Below are positions 1,003 to 10,341 of a stretch of DNA of 56,927 nucleotides, piece after piece (the first letter of the stretch is position 1; each line of letters starts with the position of its first letter). The DNA comes from a virus (Duplodnaviria; Caudoviricetes). The position numbers were made by a program, and so were the translations under genes. The stretch lies in the IMG/VR virus record IMGVR_UViG_3300037247_001878, positions 1-56,927 of that record; one strand, 5' to 3'. A model generated the notes under the pieces. The model ran no database searches and had not been told where the DNA came from. It saw only the letters and a program-made list of their open reading frames with translations.

Positions 1003-1832
1003 CCGCGCGCTACCGCGCCGCGCGCCGCCCGGGCCGCGACCAGCGCCGCTACATCGCCCGCCTCGAGGATCTGCTCGGCCCCCGCCCCGTGGCGGGTCTC
1101 ACCGCCGCCGACATCCACGCCGCCGCCCACGCCCTCTACCCGACCGCCAAGGCCGCCACCAAGAACCGCCAGGCAGTCAACCCGGCCGCCGCCATCCTCC
1201 ACTTCGGCGCCGAGAACTGGCCGACGCTTTGCCCCTATCTGATCCTGCGCCGCCTCAAGGAGGCCGAGCCCGAACGACCGCGACCTTCGCCCGAGGCGAT
1301 CGCGGCGCTGTTGCGCGCCGCCGAGGGCGATATCGAGGACTGGCTGATCCTGGTCCTGCACCAGGGCTGGCGCGTCAGCGAGACACTGTCGCTCAGGGTC
1401 CGCCACCTGCGATTGGCCGATCGCCAGGCCGACGTCTGGATCCCCAAGTCCCGCGCCTGGAAGGCGATCGAGCTGCACGCCCGGACCCGCGCCATGCTGC
1501 GCCGGCGGGTCAAGAACCTCGATCCCGACGACTGTGTCTTCCCCTGGCGCCGGCGCCAGCGCCTCTACGACGACCTCAAGCCCGTCTGCCGGGCGGCCGG
1601 CGTCACTTTCACCCCGCACATGGCGCGCCGGCTCTTCGCCGGCGACCTGGACCAGGCCCTGGTCACGCCGCGCGGCATCAAGGACGCCGGGACCTGGCTG
1701 TCCGAGAAGTCGATCGCCGTCTACATCGCCTCCGATGCCCGCCACGCGCGCCGCGTGATCGGCCTGCTGCCGGCGCGCAAGGCAGCCAAGACCCGGGGGA
1801 ACACCCGGGGCAAGCACCGGAAATCAAGCTAA
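792..1832 (+). CDS. int: Tyrosine recombinase (phage integrase)
   Basis: Catalytic set GWRVSE (R), IPKSR (K), TPHMARR (HxxR), GTW (W), IAVY (Y); adjacent to tRNA-like att core. Confidence 0.92.
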   Translation: MGFTVYPPGSRKGNRRWLARVYIGAEEWEFVLEEANDRRAARHLAGKFEAAKRLGHPVPASLPPKTFAEIAARYRAARRPGRDQRRYIARLEDLLGPRPVAGLTAADIHAAAHALYPTAKAATKNRQAVNPAAAILHFGAENWPTLCPYLILRRLKEAEPERPRPSPEAIAALLRAAEGDIEDWLILVLHQGWRVSETLSLRVRHLRLADRQADVWIPKSRAWKAIELHARTRAMLRRRVKNLDPDDCVFPWRRRQRLYDDLKPVCRAAGVTFTPHMARRLFAGDLDQALVTPRGIKDAGTWLSEKSIAVYIASDARHARRVIGLLPARKAAKTRGNTRGKHRKSS

Positions 1833-2008
1833 ATCGAGCTAAATCAGTACCCCGCACCGCCCCGTCCCAGGGCGGGGTCGGAGGTTCGATTCCTCCTCGC
1901 GGCACCATTAAGCCCTTGAAAATCCACACGATCGCATGATCTACGCGGGCCGCTGATTTCCGGCTGGTTCCCGTTCGTTCCCGGTGTTACCCGGGGAGAC
2001 CCGGGGAG
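1791..2008 (+). repeat. Candidate integrase arm-type sites flanking attP
   Basis: Paired ACCCGGGG direct repeats at about 1791-1810 and 1989-2008 on either side of the core. Confidence 0.55.
1874..1907 (+). other. attP core: 3' half of a tRNA (probably tRNA-Thr)
   Basis: GGGGTC GGAGG TTCGATT CCTCC TCGCGGC ACCA = variable loop, T-arm, acceptor 3' strand and CCA with no D-arm or 5' acceptor strand upstream; resembles alphaproteobacterial tRNA-Thr 3' ends (from recall). Confidence 0.8.
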
Positions 2009-2033
2009 GATGTTCGCGGGCCGTTCCACGCAC

Positions 2034-2087
2034 AAAAAAACGCCCGCCCCACCATAGCCCCCGAGAGGGCGGCGACGGAGCGGGCAG
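2034..2087 (-). terminator. Intrinsic terminator for leftward transcription
   Basis: Minus strand GCCCGCTCC...GGGGCGGGCG stem followed by T7, downstream of 2149..3051. Confidence 0.6.
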
Positions 2088-2148
2088 GTCAGTGTGTACT
2101 AGGGTCAGATGACGGGTATCAGATATCGGGTATCGAGGCTGGTTGGTG

Positions 2149-3051
2149 TCACGACCGCGGCGGGTCGAGATCGCCGCCGGCAAGGATTTTCTTGTAGAGC
2201 GGCCAGTTGCCGGGGTTCTCGTAAGAATGCCAGTGATCGCCGATACCGTTCGGATTGTCGCCGGCGACGTGGTGCCAGCCCTGGGCGGCGGCCCAGGCGC
2301 GGAATGCCGGGCGGTCGAGCTCCAGATCGCACCAGTTGTCGGGCGCACCGTTGCCTTCCGGCGAGGACCGGCCACCCAGGCCGACGCGGCCGATGAAGCC
2401 GCCGCCGAAGCCGGGCGCCGCGCGGCCGAGCTTGCCGAGCACATCGTCGGCGGGCACCACGACGTTGTAGAACCGCAGGTGGCGGCCAGCGTTTGCGGCC
2501 GTGGCGAACGCGGTCTCGGCGTATTCCGCGCCGTTGAGCAGCAGGACGCGGCGGATCGGCAGCGCCGGGTCGGCGCGGATCGCGCGCAGCGCGACCCGGG
2601 TCCCGAGCGAGTGGGCGATCAGGTCGACCGGGCCGCCGAGGCGGGCCAGCGTGGTCGCCAGCACGTTGCCGGCGTCCCAGGCCAGATCCCAGGCGCGGCG
2701 ATAGGTGAGGGCCCGGCCGTGGCGCCAGGCCTCCCAAATCGACCGTGGCCAGGAGAGCCCGGCGGGCAGGGAGTACCAGCCGAACCCGAAGCCCGGGCGG
2801 CCCGGCGGCAGGATCGTGCCGCGCCACTTCGGGTAAAGCTCGACGTGGGGGTTGTCGCGGCCGGTGGACGCCGGGTCATGTTCGAAGCCATGCACCATGA
2901 CGATCGGGTTGGCCTCGCGGCCGTCAAGGATCGAACCGGCCTCGCCGTGGGGCAGACCGCTGGCGGCGATCACCGCGCCCGGCAGGCCGTCCGGCCGCAC
3001 CGCATGGACCGCGCCGCCGCGCAGGATCGAGACGCCGGGGGCTGGGGTCAT
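2149..3051 (-). CDS. Alpha/beta hydrolase (esterase/lipase-like)
   Basis: IVMVHGF oxyanion motif, VDLIAHSLG nucleophile elbow, DDVL and GDHWHSY candidates for Asp/His; start could be 3066. Confidence 0.75.
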   Translation of the reverse strand: MTPAPGVSILRGGAVHAVRPDGLPGAVIAASGLPHGEAGSILDGREANPIVMVHGFEHDPASTGRDNPHVELYPKWRGTILPPGRPGFGFGWYSLPAGLSWPRSIWEAWRHGRALTYRRAWDLAWDAGNVLATTLARLGGPVDLIAHSLGTRVALRAIRADPALPIRRVLLLNGAEYAETAFATAANAGRHLRFYNVVVPADDVLGKLGRAAPGFGGGFIGRVGLGGRSSPEGNGAPDNWCDLELDRPAFRAWAAAQGWHHVAGDNPNGIGDHWHSYENPGNWPLYKKILAGGDLDPPRS

Positions 3052-3069
3052 GGTGGAACCTTTCAAAGA

Positions 3070-3127
3070 AAATAGCCTAACCGGCTATTTTTTTGCTTGA
3101 CTGAAATAGCCCGATAGGCTATATATT
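3070..3127 (+). promoter_or_regulatory. Sigma70-type promoter with two palindromic operators
   Basis: TTGACT (3097-3102)-N17-TATATA; ATAGCC-N5-GGCTAT palindromes within 3070-3090 and 3104-3124. Confidence 0.7.
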
Positions 3128-3152
3128 AGTTATCAGAACGGAGGACAGACCG

Positions 3153-3932
3153 ATGACCCACATGCCCATGATCGCCGAGTTGATCCACCGCGGCGCGCTG
3201 TTCGTGGTCAACCACAGCGGCGGGAAGGACAGCCAGGCGATGACCGCTTATGTCCGGCAGATCGTGCCGGAGGACCAAATCCTGGTGATCCACGCACACC
3301 TGCCAGAGGTGGAGTGGGATGGCGTTATCGATCACATCGAGGCGACGATCGACGGCTTGCCCCTACGCGTCGTCCAGGCCGGCAAGACGTTTTTCCAGAT
3401 GGTCGAGCGCCGTGGCATGTGGCCGAGCCCGAGCAACCGCCAGTGCACCTCGGACTTGAAGCGCGATCCGATTGAGAAAGAGATAAGGCGAATCTTGAAG
3501 GAACGCGGTCAGTCCCTGGTCGTCAATTGCATGGGGCTCCGCGCGGAGGAGAGCGCCAGCCGCGCGCGCAAGGCCACGTTTAAACTTTCCAATCGCAACA
3601 GCAAGGCTGGGCGCGAATGGTACGACTGGCTGCCGATCCATTCCTGGATGACCGAGCAAGTCTTCAACACCATCCGTTTCGCGGGCCAGACGCCACATTG
3701 GGCCTACGCGGCGGGCATGACGCGGCTGTCTTGTGTGTTCTGCATTATGAGCAGCCGGGACGATCTCTGCACCGCCGCGCGCCTGCAACCAGATCTCTAC
3801 CGGCGCTATGTCGAGACCGAGCGCCGCTTGGACCACACGATGAACATGGCCCGGCGCCCGCTGGAAGAGGTCACTGGCATCACGGCCGAGATCGATTTGA
3901 CGGTCCCGGATTTCCTGCGCAGGGCAGTCTAA
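3153..3932 (+). CDS. PAPS-reductase family PP-loop protein (phage type, likely Fe-S)
   Basis: SGGKDS PP-loop, RQCTSDLK, GLRAEES, RLSCVFC. Confidence 0.85.
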   Translation: MTHMPMIAELIHRGALFVVNHSGGKDSQAMTAYVRQIVPEDQILVIHAHLPEVEWDGVIDHIEATIDGLPLRVVQAGKTFFQMVERRGMWPSPSNRQCTSDLKRDPIEKEIRRILKERGQSLVVNCMGLRAEESASRARKATFKLSNRNSKAGREWYDWLPIHSWMTEQVFNTIRFAGQTPHWAYAAGMTRLSCVFCIMSSRDDLCTAARLQPDLYRRYVETERRLDHTMNMARRPLEEVTGITAEIDLTVPDFLRRAV

Positions 3933-4609: not shown

Positions 4610-4911
4610 GCCATGCCCCGTCTCTTGGACCTCCGCCGATGACAGCCGCCCCCGAATCGGTATATCCCGCGAGCGTGGACCACACCGAATTCCGCACCAC
4701 GCTCGCGCGCCTGGGCCTGCGCCAGGTGGATTTCGCGCGCCTGGTGGCCCACCTGTCGGGCGAGAAGCCGAACTCGGTGACGGTCAACCGCTGGGCCGTA
4801 GGCACGTGTTCGGTGCCGCCCACGGTGGCCGCGATCCTGCGCCTGTGGGAAATGCTGCCAACGGCTCGGCGGAAACAGATTCTCAAAACCGCAAGCGAGG
4901 CGACCCGCTAG
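4606..4911 (+). CDS. Small XRE/HTH regulator
   Basis: EFRTTLARLGLRQVDFARLV...VTVNRWAVGTCSVP; ATG at 4639 is an alternative start. Confidence 0.7.
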   Translation: MSHAPSLGPPPMTAAPESVYPASVDHTEFRTTLARLGLRQVDFARLVAHLSGEKPNSVTVNRWAVGTCSVPPTVAAILRLWEMLPTARRKQILKTASEATR

Positions 4912-5232
4912 TCAGTCGGGCGCCGCCGGCGGTTGCATCTGGAACAAGGCGCGGATCACGTCCAGGGTGTGGGCGTCCAGCGTCGGGGCCTGTCGACCCG
5001 GGTCGGGGCCGTCGCAGAGCAGGTCGAGCGCCGCCAGTTTCGCGGGTTGGTCTTTGAACATGCGGTTGGTGGCACCGCGGCCGGCGGCACATTGACCGAC
5101 AAGCAAGACCCCGGCCTCCAGGTCCTTGGCCGCTTTCGCATTCTCGACGCTCTGGCCGACCCAAGCCCCCACGCCCGCGCAACCGGCGAGCAGAAGCAAC
5201 GCCGCCGTGGCGGCGAGGAAGGTTTTTTTCAT
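4912..5232 (-). CDS. Lipoprotein, possible o-spanin/lysis accessory
   Basis: MKKTFLAATAALLLLAGC signal with lipobox; follows the endolysin once the IS is removed. Confidence 0.65.
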   Translation of the reverse strand: MKKTFLAATAALLLLAGCAGVGAWVGQSVENAKAAKDLEAGVLLVGQCAAGRGATNRMFKDQPAKLAALDLLCDGPDPGRQAPTLDAHTLDVIRALFQMQPPAAPD

Positions 5233-5363
5233 TCCATGCCTCCTTCGGTGACGAACTCGGCGAGCGTGCCGAAGAGCTCTTTCGCCTCTTCCGGACCGAA
5301 CACGACGGCGGCGACGAGCAGAAACACGCCGGCGACAACGCCGGCGATCAGCTGGGTTTTCAT
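5229..5363 (-). CDS. 44-aa single-pass membrane protein of the lysis cassette
   Basis: MKTQLIAGVVAGVFLLVAAVVFGPEEAKELF...; AGGA RBS; ATGA overlap with the lipoprotein; absent from the ORF track because it is short. Confidence 0.55.
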   Translation of the reverse strand: MKTQLIAGVVAGVFLLVAAVVFGPEEAKELFGTLAEFVTEGGME

Positions 5364-5461
5364 GTGCTTCGATTCCTACGGATTGAAAAAGTCCGGTATT
5401 AGGTAGCAACCACACCTAAAATCCCCTCAAAATTTTCCGCGCGTTCCCATACACTTAGCCC

Positions 5462-5896
5462 ATGACGGACTACGTTGTGACAGGCCTGGTCAAGCGCCGC
5501 GCCGAACTGACCGGCGAGATAGAGCGCACGCATGAAAGCCTGCGAAAGATGCTGGCCGATCTGGAAGCGCTGGACGCGACCCTGTTGATGTTCGCGCCGG
5601 ACTTTCAGGTTGAGACCATCCGGCCCAAGGCCTTCCGTCCGCCAAAGGACTGGTCCCGGCGCGGCGAAATGACCCGTATCATCCTGTCCATACTCAGGCA
5701 GGCCGCAGAGCCGCTCACCACGCGGGATATCGCGCTACAGCTTCTTGTCGAGCGGGCCTTGGACAAGAGCGATCAGAAGCTACTGCGGCTTATGACCAAG
5801 CGCGTTGGCGTGGCGCTCAGGCTTCAACGTGAAAAGGGCGCGGCGCGGTGCGAACAGGGGCCGGGGCAGTATATGCTTTGGGAAATAACGCGTTAG
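5462..5896 (+). CDS. Hypothetical IS passenger (coiled coil plus winged-helix-like)
   Basis: Clean 144-aa ORF just inside IRL. Confidence 0.7.
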   Translation: MTDYVVTGLVKRRAELTGEIERTHESLRKMLADLEALDATLLMFAPDFQVETIRPKAFRPPKDWSRRGEMTRIILSILRQAAEPLTTRDIALQLLVERALDKSDQKLLRLMTKRVGVALRLQREKGAARCEQGPGQYMLWEITR

Positions 5897-6011
5897 CGCA
5901 CAAACCAAGAACACGCTCGACTCTTCCCTGATTTTGTGGTCTGAACCGAGAAACCCCCGACATGTGGCGTGCCGGGGGTCCTAGTCAAACTGCCAGCAGA
6001 AGGAGATTCAA

Positions 6012-6362
6012 ATGGCAGATTATATTGATTGGCCCTCTGGCGGGGCCACTTACCGTTACTGGTTTCTAGCGAATCCGTCAAGTGCTTCGGGCATCAAGGC
6101 GGTGGCAGGAAACTACATGTTTGTTCGGTTGGCCAACGATGGCTGGGTCCCAGTTTACATCGGGATCGCTGATGATCTACAAGACCGCATCCCCAGTCAC
6201 GAACGCTGGAAAGAGGCGGTTGCGTTGGGGGCCACAGAAGTTATGGCCCACACTCAAGCAAACCGGGCCAAGCGCGAAACGGAAGAAAAGGCTCTTATCA
6301 AGCATTGGAACCCGCCGCTAAACATCCAGCATCGCAGACGAGCAAGATTGCTCGCCGGTTAG
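6012..6362 (+). CDS. Small stand-alone GIY-YIG-like nuclease
   Basis: GNY...VYIGIADDLQDRI.SH, later E..LI...NPPLN; AGGAG RBS. Confidence 0.75.
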   Translation: MADYIDWPSGGATYRYWFLANPSSASGIKAVAGNYMFVRLANDGWVPVYIGIADDLQDRIPSHERWKEAVALGATEVMAHTQANRAKRETEEKALIKHWNPPLNIQHRRRARLLAG

Positions 6363-6497
6363 GGTTTCGATCATCAAACTCTGACTCGGGCGTGGCGGGC
6401 TGCCTTTGGCCCGCCACAACCCGTTTCGCCGGTGGATTGTTAACAACCAACTTAAGCCTTTCAAGGCGCTGTTCCATGCTGAGAATTCCATCACAAC

Positions 6498-6532
6498 TTG
6501 AGGTTATTAATGTCGCGCCCCATAATGCGCGC
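6498..6532 (+). promoter_or_regulatory. Stable-RNA-type promoter of the tRNA gene
   Basis: TTGAGG-N17-CATAAT followed by GC-rich discriminator GCGCGC, ending 2 nt before the tRNA. Confidence 0.7.
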
Positions 6533-6534
6533 TA

Positions 6535-6623
6535 GGGGGTGTGGTGGAATTGGTAGACACGGGTGATTTGTAATCTCCTGGGGTTGATCCCCCGTGCAGG
6601 TTCGAGTCCTGTCACCCCTACCA
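6535..6623 (+). tRNA. Class II tRNA with Leu-type body and UGU (Thr) anticodon
   Basis: Acceptor GGGGGTG/CACCCCT, A73, encoded CCA; D region GTGGAATTGGTAGACAC; anticodon arm GGTGA-TTTGTAA-TCTCC; long variable arm GGGG-TTGAT-CCCC; T-arm GCAGG-TTCGAGT-CCTGT. Confidence 0.9.
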
Positions 6624-6692
6624 CCTAACCCATTGAAATACTTAAAAACTTTCGTTATTGATTTTGAAACCAGGGAATCGTATATTATGTGA

Positions 6693-6805
6693 AGGTTGGT
6701 CTCTCGGAGCTGGTCCGATTTAATCACGGATCAGTTTACAACTACTGACCTAAGAGGAATTTGAGTGCGGGCCAATTGTCGAGAGACGGCCCGCACTTAC
6801 CTTTT
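6693..6805 (+). ncRNA. Candidate structured small RNA
   Basis: Promoter TTGATT(6658)-N17-TATATT; nested stems 6693-6700/6744-6751 and 6708-6717/6727-6736; terminator stem 6763-6773/6788-6798 then ACCTTTT. Confidence 0.45.
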
Positions 6806-6841
6806 CAACCCGCCCCTGCCGATGCCCCTCCCGCGAAAAGA

Positions 6842-7069
6842 TCAGTCGTCCGAAATCCGCAACGTCTGACACCCGGCCGCCGCAAGGCACTGGATCAGGA
6901 ACACGGCACTAAACCCGCCCCGGCTGATCTTGTTGTTCAGATTCCGCTCGGTCTCATGAATTTCCATCGCCTCTAGGCGTACAGATAAGTCACGATACGT
7001 CACGTTTCGGCGCTTTAGCTCGGCTTTCAGCAGACCCTTGACCCGGGCTTGCCACTCGGTGTCCGGCAT
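6842..7069 (-). CDS. Small HTH-like regulator (DUF6471-like) divergent from the transposase
   Basis: VKGLLKAELKRRNVTYRDLSVRL...ETERNLNNKISRGGFSAVFLIQCL. Confidence 0.75.
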   Translation of the reverse strand: MPDTEWQARVKGLLKAELKRRNVTYRDLSVRLEAMEIHETERNLNNKISRGGFSAVFLIQCLAAAGCQTLRISDD

Positions 7070-7072
7070 ACG

Positions 7073-7177
7073 GTATCTCCGATTTCAGGGGTTATATCAC
7101 CATATTCGATATATAAGCCCTTGAATTCGAGATACAAGATCACCATATCTGATGGTAGACACCCCGGATATGGTGAT
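7073..7177. promoter_or_regulatory. Operator repeats in the divergent regulator/transposase spacer
   Basis: ATCACCATAT at 7096 and 7139, inverted copy ATATGGTGAT at 7168; imperfect long inverted repeat 7073-7135. Confidence 0.55.
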
Positions 7178-7181
7178 AAAA

Positions 7182-8147
7182 ATGACCCAGCACTTCCTAC
7201 TTTCCGCCCAAGCTCGGACCCTCAGCCTGGCCAAGGTCATGCGGCTGTCCGACCGAGAGGCTTACCAGACGTTCGCGCGCATCCGCTGGGCTCAGAACGA
7301 CGGCGAGCCCTTTTGCCCACGCTGCGGCTGCGTAGCGGTCTACACGTACCGCTCACGGCCTATCTACAAGTGCCAGGGCTGCGAAAGCCAGTTCTCGATC
7401 ACCACGGATACGATCTTCGCCAGTCGCAAGCTGCCGATCCGCGATTTGCTGGCCGCCATCGCGATCTTCGTGAACGGGGCCAAGGGCATTTCGGCGCTGC
7501 AATTGAGCCGTGACCTGGACTGCCAGTACAAGACGGCTTTCGTCCTGGCTCACAAGTTGCGCGAAGCCATGGGCGCCGAAATGAAGGGCCGCAAGCTGTC
7601 CGGCCATGTCGAAGTCGATGGCGCGTACTTCGGCGGCTATGTGCGACCCGAAAACCGCAAGGAGGACCGCGTAGATCGCCGTTTGTCCGAGCATCGTTCC
7701 GGCAAGCGCCGGGTCGTTATCATCATGCGCGAGCGTGGCGGTAAGTCCTTTCCGTTCGTTTGCCAGACAGAAGATCAGTCCGTACCCGTGATCCGCGCGC
7801 GCGTCCTGTCGGGCACCACGGTTTATGCCGACGAGTCCTCAAGCTGGGATGCGCTACACGCCAAGTACGACATGCACCGCGTCAATCACTCGATCATGTT
7901 CCAGGACGAAGGCAAGGCCGATACCAATCAGGCCGAAAGCTACTTCTCCCGTCTGCGTCGCGCGGAGATTGGCACACACCACCACATTAGCGGGCGGTAT
8001 CTGCACTCCTACGCGAACGAAATGGCTTGGCGTGAAGATCACCGCCGCAAGCCGAACGGAACGCAGTATCTCCTAGTCGCCGCTGCCGCTCTTGGCCATC
8101 CGGTGTCGCGGGAATGGAAAGGCTATTGGCAGCGGAGCGTGAACTAG
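7182..8147 (+). CDS. IS1595-family DDE transposase
   Basis: Zn ribbon CPRC...CQGC, GISALQLSR HTH, VEVDGAYFGG, VYADE, VNHS, TNQAESYFSRLRR. Confidence 0.95.
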   Translation: MTQHFLLSAQARTLSLAKVMRLSDREAYQTFARIRWAQNDGEPFCPRCGCVAVYTYRSRPIYKCQGCESQFSITTDTIFASRKLPIRDLLAAIAIFVNGAKGISALQLSRDLDCQYKTAFVLAHKLREAMGAEMKGRKLSGHVEVDGAYFGGYVRPENRKEDRVDRRLSEHRSGKRRVVIIMRERGGKSFPFVCQTEDQSVPVIRARVLSGTTVYADESSSWDALHAKYDMHRVNHSIMFQDEGKADTNQAESYFSRLRRAEIGTHHHISGRYLHSYANEMAWREDHRRKPNGTQYLLVAAAALGHPVSREWKGYWQRSVN

Positions 8148-8202
8148 CTTGAACAACAAGATTAGTTGAGGCAGGGTGCTACAACGTTAGACTAGACGAT
8201 TC

Positions 8203-9138
8203 TTAGTCACCTTTAAATAGCTCTGGAATTCTCAAATCAAAAAGAGCGCTCAAAAAGGCGCCTGAAATCAACGCGATAACTATCCAAATCATTTTTGCGC
8301 CAAAAAAGAGGCCGCTCATCTTATCAAGTCTAGTGCGAATTGTTTCGTCCTCTTGTTTTCGCGCGTCTTTTTCTTCTCTTAGTCCCTCCAGCAATTTATC
8401 AATTTGCCGACTTTGCTTCTCAAGAGACTCCCGAAAGGTGCCCTTCCAATCTCGATCCTCGCGAACCTCTGTAGTGAGCGCGGTAAGCTGACTTTCCAAA
8501 TTGGCTACGGCATCGGCCAAAGAGGTAAGTTCTACTGGCTTGTAGTTTTTGATCAGGGTAATCAAGTCATCGGGAAACTCGCCCTCCGTTGTGGTCTCAG
8601 GGGTAGGAAAGTGAGTCTGTTCTTCATCGGAAAGCTGATAGAATAGTGCAGCTATGAGCTTCTTTCTAGGTCGAAGCACGAATGGCGTCGAAGAGACATT
8701 ATAGAGTCCAAGCCACAATGGTCCCCTGTATAAAGGGTCAATGCAGAACCCACCAAGTGCTATAATCCCAGCATGACTAATTTTTCTCTTTGGGCTCAAA
8801 ACCGCAATTATATTTTCTGGCAGATCCAATTCCTCAATTGTTCGGACGAATACTACTTCTCCGGGTTCAATTGTAACTGAAGCCCTTTCCATCTCGGATA
8901 ATTTTTCGATGTCTACGGGCTGTCCAAAAGAGGCTTTCAATATCTGAGGGCTCAGCCGAAAGTCATACTTTGCACCCTCTACGCACTGTGAATTCCCGTG
9001 CTTGATGAAGCCATCCTCGACGGCGCCACGCAATCCGTCGCCCGTAATCAGCATTGCCATCGGCCAGGCTTCCCCCACGCCTGTAGTCGGCGGCTCGTGA
9101 TGGTCCACAACATCTTGTGGTTCTTGACTCGTTTGCAT
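8203..9138 (-). CDS. dCTP deaminase/dUTPase-fold domain fused to coiled coil and C-terminal TM helix
   Basis: AKYDFRL, IEPGEVVFVRTIEELDLP, IDPLYRGPL.L.LYN; C-terminal IWIVIALISGAFLSALF; start may be 9060. Confidence 0.75.
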   Translation of the reverse strand: MQTSQEPQDVVDHHEPPTTGVGEAWPMAMLITGDGLRGAVEDGFIKHGNSQCVEGAKYDFRLSPQILKASFGQPVDIEKLSEMERASVTIEPGEVVFVRTIEELDLPENIIAVLSPKRKISHAGIIALGGFCIDPLYRGPLWLGLYNVSSTPFVLRPRKKLIAALFYQLSDEEQTHFPTPETTTEGEFPDDLITLIKNYKPVELTSLADAVANLESQLTALTTEVREDRDWKGTFRESLEKQSRQIDKLLEGLREEKDARKQEDETIRTRLDKMSGLFFGAKMIWIVIALISGAFLSALFDLRIPELFKGD

Positions 9139-9196
9139 CCTACACCTGCCGGTTCACCACGTCGAGCCGTTTTCGAATCACCTATTGCCTATTATA

Positions 9197-9211
9197 GAAC
9201 AAATACAGAAC
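9197..9211. promoter_or_regulatory. Alphaproteobacterial LexA box
   Basis: GAAC-AAATACA-GAAC abutting a minus-strand TATAAT at 9191-9196. Confidence 0.6.
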
Positions 9212-9324
9212 ATTGGTATAGCAAAAAGTATGGAGGTGCGCTTGCTACCTAATACCGAAAAAGTCTTGCGATCGCAAAGGTGCGGCGGACGCCGGGCCTA
9301 TTTGGGACTTGGGTCTCACCGGGT

Positions 9325-10341
9325 TTAGTTCGTGTCGATGATCGCCTGCCAGCCATACGAACCGAGGCAGAGCTCCCAGCGGTACGGCAGGCCGGCCCAG
9401 GGCGCGATGTGGGCGAAAAGGTTGTCGGCGACGTAGACGCCAGCGGACAGGAAGCTGAGGAGCACCAGGTGGCCGCGGCCGTCTGGCACGCGGCAGATGC
9501 CGGGCCTGAGAATCCCCATGGGCCAGCCACGCGCGGCCAGGCGCGCGCGCTTGGTCAGCGCCAGGTCCTCGCAGTCGCCGGCCTCGCCGTCCTCGAGCAG
9601 GCGCCAATTGTCGTTGCCGGCCGGGTCGGGCCGGTACGGGCAGTGGTCGTTGACCTCGCGGTTTATGCGGATCAGATCGTCGATGAAGGTTGGCGCGTGG
9701 AACAGCGACACGCGTTCGCCCGCTGCCTGGTCCGGGTGACGCTCAAGGAAATCTAGCCACTGCGGCGGGTCCTGGACACGGAAGCCCAAGGTCATCGGCG
9801 TCGAGGCGCGGAGGCCCGGCGCGGGGCTGGGTTGGCCAGAGCCGGGCTCCGGGGCGCCCGCATCGTCCAGGAACGCGGGGCCGTGCCAGTGCGGCTCGAC
9901 CGCCGCCATGTAGTGCTCGGCCGTGCCCTTGCCGGCCGAAGTATTGTAAACCCGTTTCCAATATCGGGCCTGGCCCGCCAGGTCGGCGGCAGGAGGCAGG
10001 GCCGCCGGGTCGCGGTAGTAGATCAGGCGCGCGACGGCGGTGGCATAGGCGAGGTTCCAGACCAGTTGGCTCCCGCGCGGCTGGTCCGCAAGCCTGAAGG
10101 CGGCCAGCTTGCCCGCCAATGCCGGGCGGAAGCGGAGCCAGTTGCGGTACAGATCGACATGCGTGTCGGGCTCGACCTGATAGAGGCCGAGCGCCGGGCC
10201 GCCGTCCTGTTTCAGCTTCCGCAGCCCGCTCTCGGCCAACGCCGTGCCGAGCAGCAGGCGTTCGGCGGCGAGCGAGTGCAAACCGAGGCCCTGGAGCGTC
10301 GGGCGGATGACCAGGAGGGCGAACTGGAATGGGTCGATCAT
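9325..10341 (-). CDS. Endolysin: lysozyme-like domain plus transglutaminase-like cysteine peptidase (C93/BTLCP) domain
   Basis: N-term LLLGTALAES...GPALGLYQVEP...YWKRVYNT; C-term INREVN...GDCEDLALTK...GHLVL...VADN. Confidence 0.8.
   Translation of the reverse strand: MIDPFQFALLVIRPTLQGLGLHSLAAERLLLGTALAESGLRKLKQDGGPALGLYQVEPDTHVDLYRNWLRFRPALAGKLAAFRLADQPRGSQLVWNLAYATAVARLIYYRDPAALPPAADLAGQARYWKRVYNTSAGKGTAEHYMAAVEPHWHGPAFLDDAGAPEPGSGQPSPAPGLRASTPMTLGFRVQDPPQWLDFLERHPDQAAGERVSLFHAPTFIDDLIRINREVNDHCPYRPDPAGNDNWRLLEDGEAGDCEDLALTKRARLAARGWPMGILRPGICRVPDGRGHLVLLSFLSAGVYVADNLFAHIAPWAGLPYRWELCLGSYGWQAIIDTN

Follow-up and report, generated by a model that had tools for sequence, protein, structure and literature searches.

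To our knowledge, natural transfer RNAs (tRNAs) in which identity and anticodon disagree are rare, and the known cases, the allo-tRNAs, the nev-tRNAs and tRNAProX, are chromosomal. Here we describe a tRNA gene at positions 6535-6623 of the virus record IMGVR_UViG_3300037247_001878 (56,927 bases, complete-looking, about 66% G+C; the whole record is called the window below), which joins a leucine-type class II body to the threonine anticodon UGU and is carried inside a 3,864-bp transposon of the IS1595 family, inserted in the phage genome with an 8-bp target duplication. Natural tRNAs with a mismatched anticodon are already known as a kind, and what is notable in the present case is the mobility. 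If a transposon family repeatedly carries such tRNAs, codon meaning would be alterable by horizontal transfer of an element of 3-4 kb, phages included, which bears on the origin of genetic-code changes and on the tolerance or use of mistranslation. In annotation, the gene would be entered as tRNA-Thr on the strength of the anticodon, the label that ARAGORN gives it; genetic-code engineers should also find interest in natural Leu and Ser scaffolds that look orthogonal and bear new anticodons.

The allo-tRNAs are class II tRNAs of serine or alanine identity from soil and sediment bacteria, carrying many sense anticodons and UAA; some of them are active in E. coli, where they insert the amino acid of the body, and they are often located near toxin-antitoxin genes, one overlapping a transposon-related open reading frame (ORF) (PMC5389517, PMC7609411). 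As in the allo-tRNAs (Mukai et al. 2017, PMC5389517), we deal here with a natural bacterial class II tRNA whose synthetase would ignore the anticodon. The tRNA at 6535-6623 differs from the allo-tRNAs described there in its 7/5 arrangement of acceptor and T stems (8/4 or 9/3, forming a 12-bp branch, in allo-tRNAs), in the presence of A73 and G3-C70 in place of the G73 of serine identity or the G3.U70 of alanine identity, and in its location within the defined ends of an IS1595-family element; the main text of PMC5389517 contains neither of the terms IS1595 and tRNALeu.

Class II tRNAs with a long variable arm and with anticodons of neither leucine nor serine are also represented by the nematode nev-tRNAs (Hamashima et al. 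2012, PMC3333845). Unlike the present gene, those described are found in eukaryotes, being chromosomal and specific to nematodes; their anticodons are different ones, and no mobile element is involved. Reportedly they are leucine-charged, with anticodons for Gly and Ile. For tRNAProX/ProRSx of Streptomyces and relatives (PMC10404621, PMC11415595), a bacterial mismatch between identity and anticodon is likewise thought to be deliberate; that system consists of a proline body with a dedicated second synthetase, whereas the IS1595 element described here is without a synthetase gene (no aminoacyl-tRNA synthetase family was found among its five ORFs with Pfam, PHROG and NCBIfam). Neither 'transpos' nor 'phage' occurs in the main text of the 2024 review of tRNA-based mistranslation (PMC11415595).

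Our literature searches found no paper on tRNAs borne by IS1595 elements. Siguier, Gagnevin and Chandler are said to have described in 2009 the ISNwi1-type IS1595 elements as 'transporter IS' (insertion sequence) with passenger genes, the described passengers being protein genes. The element in the window shares with them the zinc-ribbon DDE transposase, the short terminal inverted repeats, the 8-bp target duplication and the presence of passenger genes, and differs in that it carries a tRNA. As reportedly observed by Borges et al. in 2022 and Peters et al. in 2022, the suppressor tRNAs of certain phages correspond to stop codons that are recoded within the genes of the phage itself. The likeness is that a mobile genome imports a tRNA that would alter codon reading; unlike those suppressors, the tRNA at 6535-6623 is part of a transposon inserted in the phage and would read a sense codon, and both the transposase and the codon statistics suggest no recoding.

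The tRNA gene and its predicted identity

A single tRNA was identified by ARAGORN in the whole window, at 6535-6623 on the plus strand with anticodon tgt, and positions 6535-6620 match Rfam family RF00005 over model positions 1-71 of 71 with 50.1 bits (E 8.2e-08; gathering score, 29 bits). The structural details were taken from the sequence and the Infernal alignment. This class II tRNA gene of 89 nt is composed of the acceptor stem GGGGGUG/CACCCCU, giving G1.U72 and G2-C71 and also G3-C70, the D arm GUGGAAUUGGUAGACAC, the anticodon stem GGUGA/UCUCC with the mismatch U29.U41 and the loop UUUGUAA, a variable region of 16 nt with a GGGG/CCCC stem, and the T arm GCAGG-UUCGAGU-CCUGU, giving G49.U65, followed by A73 and the encoded CCA. 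The cloverleaf is canonical, with a 7-bp acceptor stem and a 5-bp T stem and with G.U or U.U at three pairs, and the conserved tRNA nucleotides U8, A14, G18G19, U33, A37, G53-T54-T55-C56, A58 and C61 are all kept. The initial annotation of this DNA had already read the 89-nt cloverleaf with its Leu-type D region, UUUGUAA loop, long variable arm, A73 and CCA, together with G1.U72, G2-C71 and U29.U41; all of these were seen again here, and G49.U65 is added.

The body was classified with home-made isotype profiles, constructed from the ARAGORN-labelled tRNAs of the collected loci with the anticodon masked (only 7 sequences for the Thr profile). The highest score was for Leu, 54.7 bits, followed by Gln with 20.1 and Ser with 11.0, Thr being outside the top five, in agreement with the Leu-type body proposed initially, with the reservation that the Leu profile is biased to the query, 27 of its source loci having been fetched with a pattern derived from the D arm and anticodon-loop context of the query itself. 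The shape is that of a leucine-type class II tRNA, with a 3-bp D stem, a AAUUGGUAGA loop and overall similarity of the body, and the leucine determinants A73 and A14 are both present; the anticodon UGU is not one of leucine (NAG or YAA). With its 16-nt variable region and its low-ranking Thr profile, the body is not that of a class I tRNA-Thr either. When viral contigs were scanned for the D arm and loop context of the query, any anticodon being allowed, all the 27 loci obtained carried Leu anticodons (22 complete tRNA-Leu genes plus five 5' fragments of tRNA-Leu(CAA)). In the phage database, the top matches extend over the tRNA alone, with 80.9% identity to two Stenotrophomonas phages, one record of which annotates tRNA-Leu. 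Two viral tRNA-Leu(UAA) genes are 70-72% identical to the query, and the anticodon loop differs from the UUUAAAA loops of viral tRNA-Leu(UAA) only at positions 35 and 36.

In E. coli, tRNA-Leu identity is essentially A73 and A14, the anticodon arm being dispensable for leucylation, and G73 blocks leucyl-tRNA synthetase (LeuRS), thereby excluding serine tRNAs (PMC9976931). The gene at 6535-6623 can be pictured as a genuine one with its own promoter, which would have descended from a tRNA-Leu(UAA)-like gene and now carries UGU. LeuRS, blind to the anticodon, would accept the tRNA via A73, A14 and the leucine-type D arm and tertiary frame, and the loop U33-UGU-A37-A38 appears well formed to decode ACA, plus ACG by wobble. 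The tRNA would then be charged with leucine and put some leucine at threonine codons, with part of the pool possibly charged correctly by threonyl-tRNA synthetase (ThrRS) through G35/U36. We regard, with moderate confidence, a leucine-type, promoter-bearing IS1595-passenger tRNA that misreads ACA and ACG as leucine as the best explanation of this locus; the gene, its structure, its place in the transposon and the pattern across the family are shown, whereas expression, charging and decoding, and any benefit of the tRNA, are inferred.

Several observations weigh against this explanation, one group of them in favour of a working threonine tRNA of unusual shape, which would be charged by ThrRS via G35/U36, A73 being compatible, and would supply ACA and ACG decoding, with the class II shape as inherited baggage, like that of the long-armed tRNA-Asn and tRNA-His of viruses. 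Threonine identity resides in the anticodon nucleotides G35/U36 beside acceptor-stem pairs (PMC9976931), and G35 and U36 are both present in the query. Its exact D arm was found with a nucleotide other than A at position 35 in as many as 114 viral loci (IMG/VR L114-L227), including tRNA-Asn (GUU, 23; 84-90 nt by ARAGORN), tRNA-His (GUG, 8) and tRNA-Gln (8); where inspected, the discriminator fits the anticodon, the tRNA-Asn carrying G73, and the query differs from these by A73 and A14. Because the same D arm occurs in Asn, His and Gln tRNAs, a leucine-like shape in viruses is no proof of leucine identity. The D arm had been taken initially as a mark of leucine identity, which stands for the 27 loci sharing both D arm and loop context and fails for the D arm as an exclusive feature. 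Anticodon changes alone reportedly switched E. coli tRNAs to threonine acceptance in the hands of Schulman and Pelka in 1990 and of Saks et al. in 1998. The acceptor pairs recognized by E. coli ThrRS are G1-C72 and C2-G71. Both pairs are missing from the query, which has G1.U72 and G2-C71, while nothing in it would block LeuRS, A73 and A14 being kept, and the masked sequence does not place Thr among its five best profiles. A plain threonine tRNA appears to us rather unlikely on this balance; dual charging by LeuRS and ThrRS is possible, in which ThrRS could charge part or all of the pool.

The same set of viral loci with the exact D arm (examples are L114, L124, L129 and L197) includes other unusual tRNAs. 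Two of the eight tRNA-His are 88-89 nt long, and there are more Asn-like tRNAs, uncalled by ARAGORN, with very long variable arms. Loci L171, L189, L202 and L217 carry an 83-nt leucine-like tRNA with A73 and the anticodon UCA, labelled SeC by ARAGORN, which is a possible opal suppressor.

Upstream of the tRNA, a sigma-70-like promoter pattern, TTGAGG-17-CATAAT, is located at 6498-6526 on the plus strand (9/12 matches in a consensus scan, a pattern match alone) and ends 8 nt before tRNA position 1, in line with the proposal that the gene has its own promoter; between 5800 and 8600, the promoter-like sites numbered 4, against 1.0 expected from shuffles. A look for RNA data sets that contain 5394-7150 listed none. 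The first terminator-like structure 3' of the tRNA is a putative hairpin, GUGCGGGCC...GGCCCGCAC, with a T-rich tail behind it (6765-6806, plus strand), which was recognized by eye in the sequence and was not flagged by the terminator scan. The stretch 6624-6806, from the tRNA to this hairpin and tail, is kept in contigs of other marine runs (in run X2, positions 6575-6834 with 5 differences and 1 gap). Within 6311-6834, for which runs X2, X3 and X5 have contigs, position 6563, which is G28 of the anticodon stem and pairs with 6577, is changed in X3 and X5. The only Rfam match within it, at 6692-6804 to a eukaryotic small nucleolar RNA family, scored 25.2 bits against a cut-off of 36 and was taken as chance. 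With respect to the accuracy of the sequence, a 1,111-nt Logan contig of run X1, a separate assembly, reproduces positions 5792-6902 with 0 differences. Because the two assemblies are identical over this region, the anticodon UGU is no slip of a single assembler, which speaks against the assembly error considered initially; run X1 is probably the source sample, so that this agreement represents no independent sample.

A second group of observations against a functional misreading tRNA concerns its stability, and would fit a decaying or silent passenger, that is, a captured tRNA-Leu gene without effect, whose anticodon and stems drifted and whose product folds poorly or is unstable. Three pairs are weak (G1.U72, U29.U41 and G49.U65), and the Rfam score of 50.1 bits is the lowest among the class II tRNAs compared, below all six canonical tRNA-Leu genes run for comparison (54.8-60.0). 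Folding without constraints gives a minimum-energy structure other than the cloverleaf (-33.7 kcal/mol, z -0.88), and the cloverleaf with acceptor and T stems enforced lies 2.6 kcal/mol above it, whereas this gap is only 0-0.3 kcal/mol in four canonical tRNA-Leu genes. Among the allo-tRNAs, six allo-tRNA(UAU) variants, after conversion to CUA, were inactive in E. coli (PMC5389517). On the other side, the universally conserved tRNA nucleotides and CCA are all intact, the loop departs from UUUAAAA only at positions 35 and 36, unlike what random decay would give, and the promoter-like site stands at the right distance. Including the evidence from related elements given below, we consider mere decay improbable, to about the same degree as the threonine tRNA.

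Codon usage was then compared between the transposon and the phage. In the phage genes, ACA accounts for 45 of the 868 threonine codons, in accordance with the rarity claimed initially, and ACG for 302. Since the anticodon UGU should also read ACG by wobble, and ACG is common, the effect would extend beyond rare ACA and beyond AT-rich foreign genes, which weakens the initial idea of preferential harm to the latter. Per 1000 codons, ACA is used 10.2 times in the transposon genes and 3.1 times in the phage genes, a threefold difference which counts in favour of a threonine-supplying tRNA. The transposase sequences give no sign that the element needs the tRNA: at the ACA and ACG codons of the transposase in the window, 56 relatives mostly have Thr, Ser, Ala or Glu, Leu never being the commonest, its 2 ACA codons compare with a family median of 1, and no alignment column with at least 8 ACA was detected among 57 transposase sequences. 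A 'private code' or codon lock, considered for the transposase alone, was rejected from the residues of its relatives, the unremarkable ACA use, the lack of a conserved ACA column, and the intact state of the transposases in two relatives whose tRNAs bear UUA (L035 and L046, see below), which are uninterrupted and end in TAG and TAA.

IS1595-family elements and their tRNA cargo

The transposon is delimited by the left terminal inverted repeat at 5394-5417 (plus strand) and the right terminal inverted repeat at 9234-9257 (minus strand), which are complementary at 22 of 24 positions, form the best inverted pair within 5000-9700, and carry a motif present at both ends of about 55 related elements. 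Comparison of the flanks identified the target-site duplication AAAAAGTC on both sides (left copy, 5386-5393; right copy, 9258-9265). Between the repeats, the gene for an IS1595-family transposase of 331 amino acids is located at 7152-8147 on the plus strand (Pfam DDE_Tnp_IS1595, 1.8e-41, and Zn_ribbon_IS1595, 1.2e-10; NCBIfam NF033547, 3.4e-46). The location of the tRNA as cargo inside an IS1595-family transposon, as had been proposed, is confirmed. An inner repeat pair at 6914-6939 and 8150-8175 (21/26), which would define a 1.26-kb insertion sequence excluding the tRNA, was rejected, as it has no target duplication and departs from the family motif, which the outer repeats fit.

For a survey of the family, 80 relatives of the transposase, almost all labelled Alphaproteobacteria, were retained in contigs of one genome per species, and 5 in viral contigs, none of these 5 loci having a tRNA. 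The conserved terminal repeat motif delimited 56 elements of 2.5-6.9 kb, the query included, and in 47 of them the flanking octamers agree in at least 7 of their 8 positions, as expected of a target duplication. The usual order within an element is a variable passenger gene, a 75-residue gene, the transposase, a variable region and a 144-residue gene. Using default ARAGORN calls, on which all the cargo counts are based, a tRNA-like gene was found between the repeats in 10 of the 56 elements, namely the query and 9 of its 55 relatives, and was absent from the other 46 (with -ps90 the calls rose from 9 to 17, including weak ones behind the transposase at L048 and L055, and with -ps80 to 243, which is noise). 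All 10 cargo tRNAs exceed the Rfam cut-off, with 44.7-59.6 bits, and none of them is ordinary, whereas, judged from anticodon and length, the tRNAs outside the repeats at these loci appear ordinary.

Two of the relatives (L035:6103-6190 and L046:6085-6171) carry, about 110 bp behind the transposase, a leucine-type tRNA with A73, CCA, the loop CUUUAAA and the anticodon UUA, which would read the ochre stop codon. Serine-type class II tRNAs with G73 were found with the Trp anticodon CCA (L042:6816-6905) and with the Pro anticodon UGG (L087:2886-2981, minus strand, inside repeats with the duplication GAAATTCC). By the masked profiles, L035 and L046 were assigned to Leu, and L042 and L087 to Ser. 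The remaining cargo tRNAs are one with the G3.U70 pair, the alanine mark, and the anticodon AGU (L105), one with a class I body, UGU and an odd T loop (L037), and three with irregular or 8-nt anticodon loops (L038, L051 and L074). Class II bodies with foreign anticodons thus make up 5 of the 10 cargo tRNAs, a pairing that drift would not favour; the irregular loops and odd T loops of several sister tRNAs could be decay. A leucine body with UUA, or a serine body with the anticodon of Trp or Pro, cannot serve for ordinary tRNA supply, which argues against the threonine-tRNA alternative for the query as well.

The tRNAs of L035 and L046 are identical at 82 of 88 positions and the 40 nt upstream at 31 of 40, as compared with 660 of 985 for the transposase genes and 32-42% for the remaining flanks, which are not alignable; 3' of each tRNA there is a hairpin with a T run, of different sequence in the two elements. 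This tRNA cassette is conserved above its surroundings, and has therefore been subject to purifying selection or to more recent exchange than the rest, an observation contrary to silent decay. The query tRNA is only 60-64% identical to the tRNAs of L035 and L046, so that the family pattern backs the class rather than the query copy. Being closer to the viral tRNA-Leu(UAA) genes mentioned above, it stands outside the L035/L046 lineage, which points to a separate acquisition.

The idea, put forward initially, of a mobile tRNA that alters decoding receives strong comparative support, in that nine relatives carry other mismatched, suppressor-like or irregular tRNA genes. The tRNA at 6535-6623 may be viewed as one member of a recurrent class, in which anticodon-blind body types (Leu, Ser and possibly Ala) would be combined with foreign or stop anticodons, while others have enlarged loops. 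For the query copy itself, this family pattern strengthens the mistranslation reading, which is plausible and unproven. More tentatively, IS1595-family transposons may spread among bacteria and phages a toolkit of decoding-altering tRNAs, with Leu, Ser and Ala bodies, foreign sense anticodons, and ochre and possible frameshift suppressors, selected since controlled misreading pays, of which 6535-6623 would be an active Leu-at-ACA/ACG member just delivered into a temperate phage; we hold this wider proposal to be possible, with clearly less confidence than the misreading by the query itself. If it is true, the payoff could lie in damage falling heaviest on invaders with codon usage unlike that of the GC-rich host, or alternatively in an addiction or stress-variation device.

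Normal host tRNA genes, tRNA-Arg(TCT) or tRNA-Gln(CTG), were found with their 3' ends 6-7 bp from the element at three loci (L073:3572-3648, L077:7672-7745 and L080:7859-7932), possibly through a preference for such targets. As the source of the cargo, the taking up of a host tRNA from beside the repeat was considered and is unsupported, because the cargo tRNAs sit in the interior variable region and not at the ends. The variable passenger genes of nine related elements that were checked, and one further cargo ORF of L051, gave nothing firm with Pfam, PADLOC and NCBIfam.

Leucine-type UGU tRNAs were also sought independently of the transposase. A pattern of the leucine-type D arm plus UGU loop, applied to metagenomes without transposase bait, matched 9 places, which comprise 5 tRNAs of 3 distinct sequences, and the two leucine-type UGU tRNAs that were profiled both fell to Leu. 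One of the sequences occurs on three contigs (38-39% G+C); 1.0 kb away from it is an ORF that matches Pfam DDE_Tnp_IS1595 (1.2e-37) and has a zinc ribbon. At locus L230, the tRNA is at 4865-4951, a DUF5343 gene (5074-5796) lies between it and the IS1595 transposase gene (5980-6870), and a serine recombinase gene is nearby at 1746-3386; the element ends around this transposase were sought and were not definable. The initial annotation had known of no Leu-at-Thr tRNA on an insertion sequence, a statement overtaken by this leucine-type UGU tRNA close to an IS1595 transposase. The tRNAs of L230 and L234 have G1-C72 and C2-G71, like tRNA-Thr, and in this respect favour the threonine-tRNA alternative. 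On a metagenome contig of 62% G+C (L235), positions 6424-6499 hold a tRNA of 76 nt that combines UGU with a leucine-like D arm, adjoining a tRNA-Ile with the rare anticodon UAU at 6649-6722.

Close homologues of the query tRNA itself were not retrieved: the viral scan with T arm and acceptor stem gave 8 unrelated class I tRNAs, and a second viral scan gave a single match, which is no tRNA. Because no close homologue was retrieved, there is no covariation support for the query tRNA. Among 401 alphaproteobacterial genomes, the pattern of a leucine-type D arm with a nucleotide other than A at position 35 matched 9 genomes, as against 12 for the reversed control pattern. Besides the genome of L035, the matches were five interrupted leucine-type genes, one with a large insert in the anticodon loop, one sequence other than tRNA, and one GUC tRNA. 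The interruptions (L239, L241, L242, L244 and L245) begin just past the first bases of the anticodon loop, the large insert being that of L246, and these interrupted genes are read as predicted intron-containing tRNA-Leu. The GUC tRNA (L247:8269-8353, minus strand; genome G184, a 1.5-Mb alphaproteobacterial genome) is a leucine-type class II tRNA with the Asp anticodon and 54.4 Rfam bits; no IS1595 gene was found within about 8 kb of it.

Further genes of the transposon and the phage

The 1,036-bp stretch at 5885-6920 (plus strand), which comprises a GIY-YIG gene, the tRNA and the 3' non-coding stretch, is missing from some relatives in other samples. In each of the marine runs X2 and X3, one contig joins position 5884 to 6921 with 5 other letters between; the stretch is regarded as a cargo segment because these contigs lack it. 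Its absence from relatives in two other samples is compatible with a dispensable, decaying passenger. Further contigs of X2 and X3 carry relatives of the tRNA 3' half together with the downstream sequence.

The ORF directly upstream of the tRNA (6012-6362, plus strand; 116 amino acids) shows weak matches to Pfam GIY_YIG_2 (8.1e-06) and to the NCBIfam Cho nuclease region (0.0015). This small ORF brings in a reading in which the RNA is only tRNA-shaped and acts outside translation, as a decoy or antidote for a tRNA-directed nuclease, as a partner of the GIY-YIG protein, or as a factor for transposition or target choice. The insertion of the three elements L073, L077 and L080 at 6-7 bp from the 3' ends of host tRNA genes, and the frequent location of allo-tRNA genes near toxin-antitoxin systems (PMC5389517), count in favour of this reading. 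Against such a role, PADLOC, Pfam and NCBIfam gave no nuclease or toxin family in the cargo beyond the weak GIY-YIG match, transposition does not need the tRNA, 46 of the 56 elements being without it, and the anticodon loop is fully canonical for decoding. We therefore consider a function outside translation quite improbable, the least probable of the explanations weighed here, and keep the leucine-type misreading tRNA as the preferred one.

Two other genes of the element are shared with relatives. Next to the left repeat, the gene for a 144-residue protein (5462-5896, plus strand) has homologues of 28-76% identity beside the terminal repeat in all 13 mapped relatives, with matches also in DNA, and gave no firm match with Pfam, PHROG or PADLOC. 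The gene for a 75-residue protein (6842-7069, minus strand), divergent from the transposase, has homologues of 51-73% identity in 9 of the 13 mapped relatives.

The genes of the window include those for integrase, tape measure, major head, portal and large terminase, and it is a temperate tailed phage or prophage, the host of which is probably a GC-rich alphaproteobacterium. A recent jump of the transposon into this temperate phage is the best explanation for the insertion. At the position of the variable passenger gene, the element carries at 8203-9138 on the minus strand a gene for a 311-residue protein of dCTP-deaminase/dUTPase fold (Pfam DCD, 3e-13; PHROG dCTP deaminase, 4.3e-12), for which PADLOC gave no match; the G+C content of this gene is low, 46-49%.

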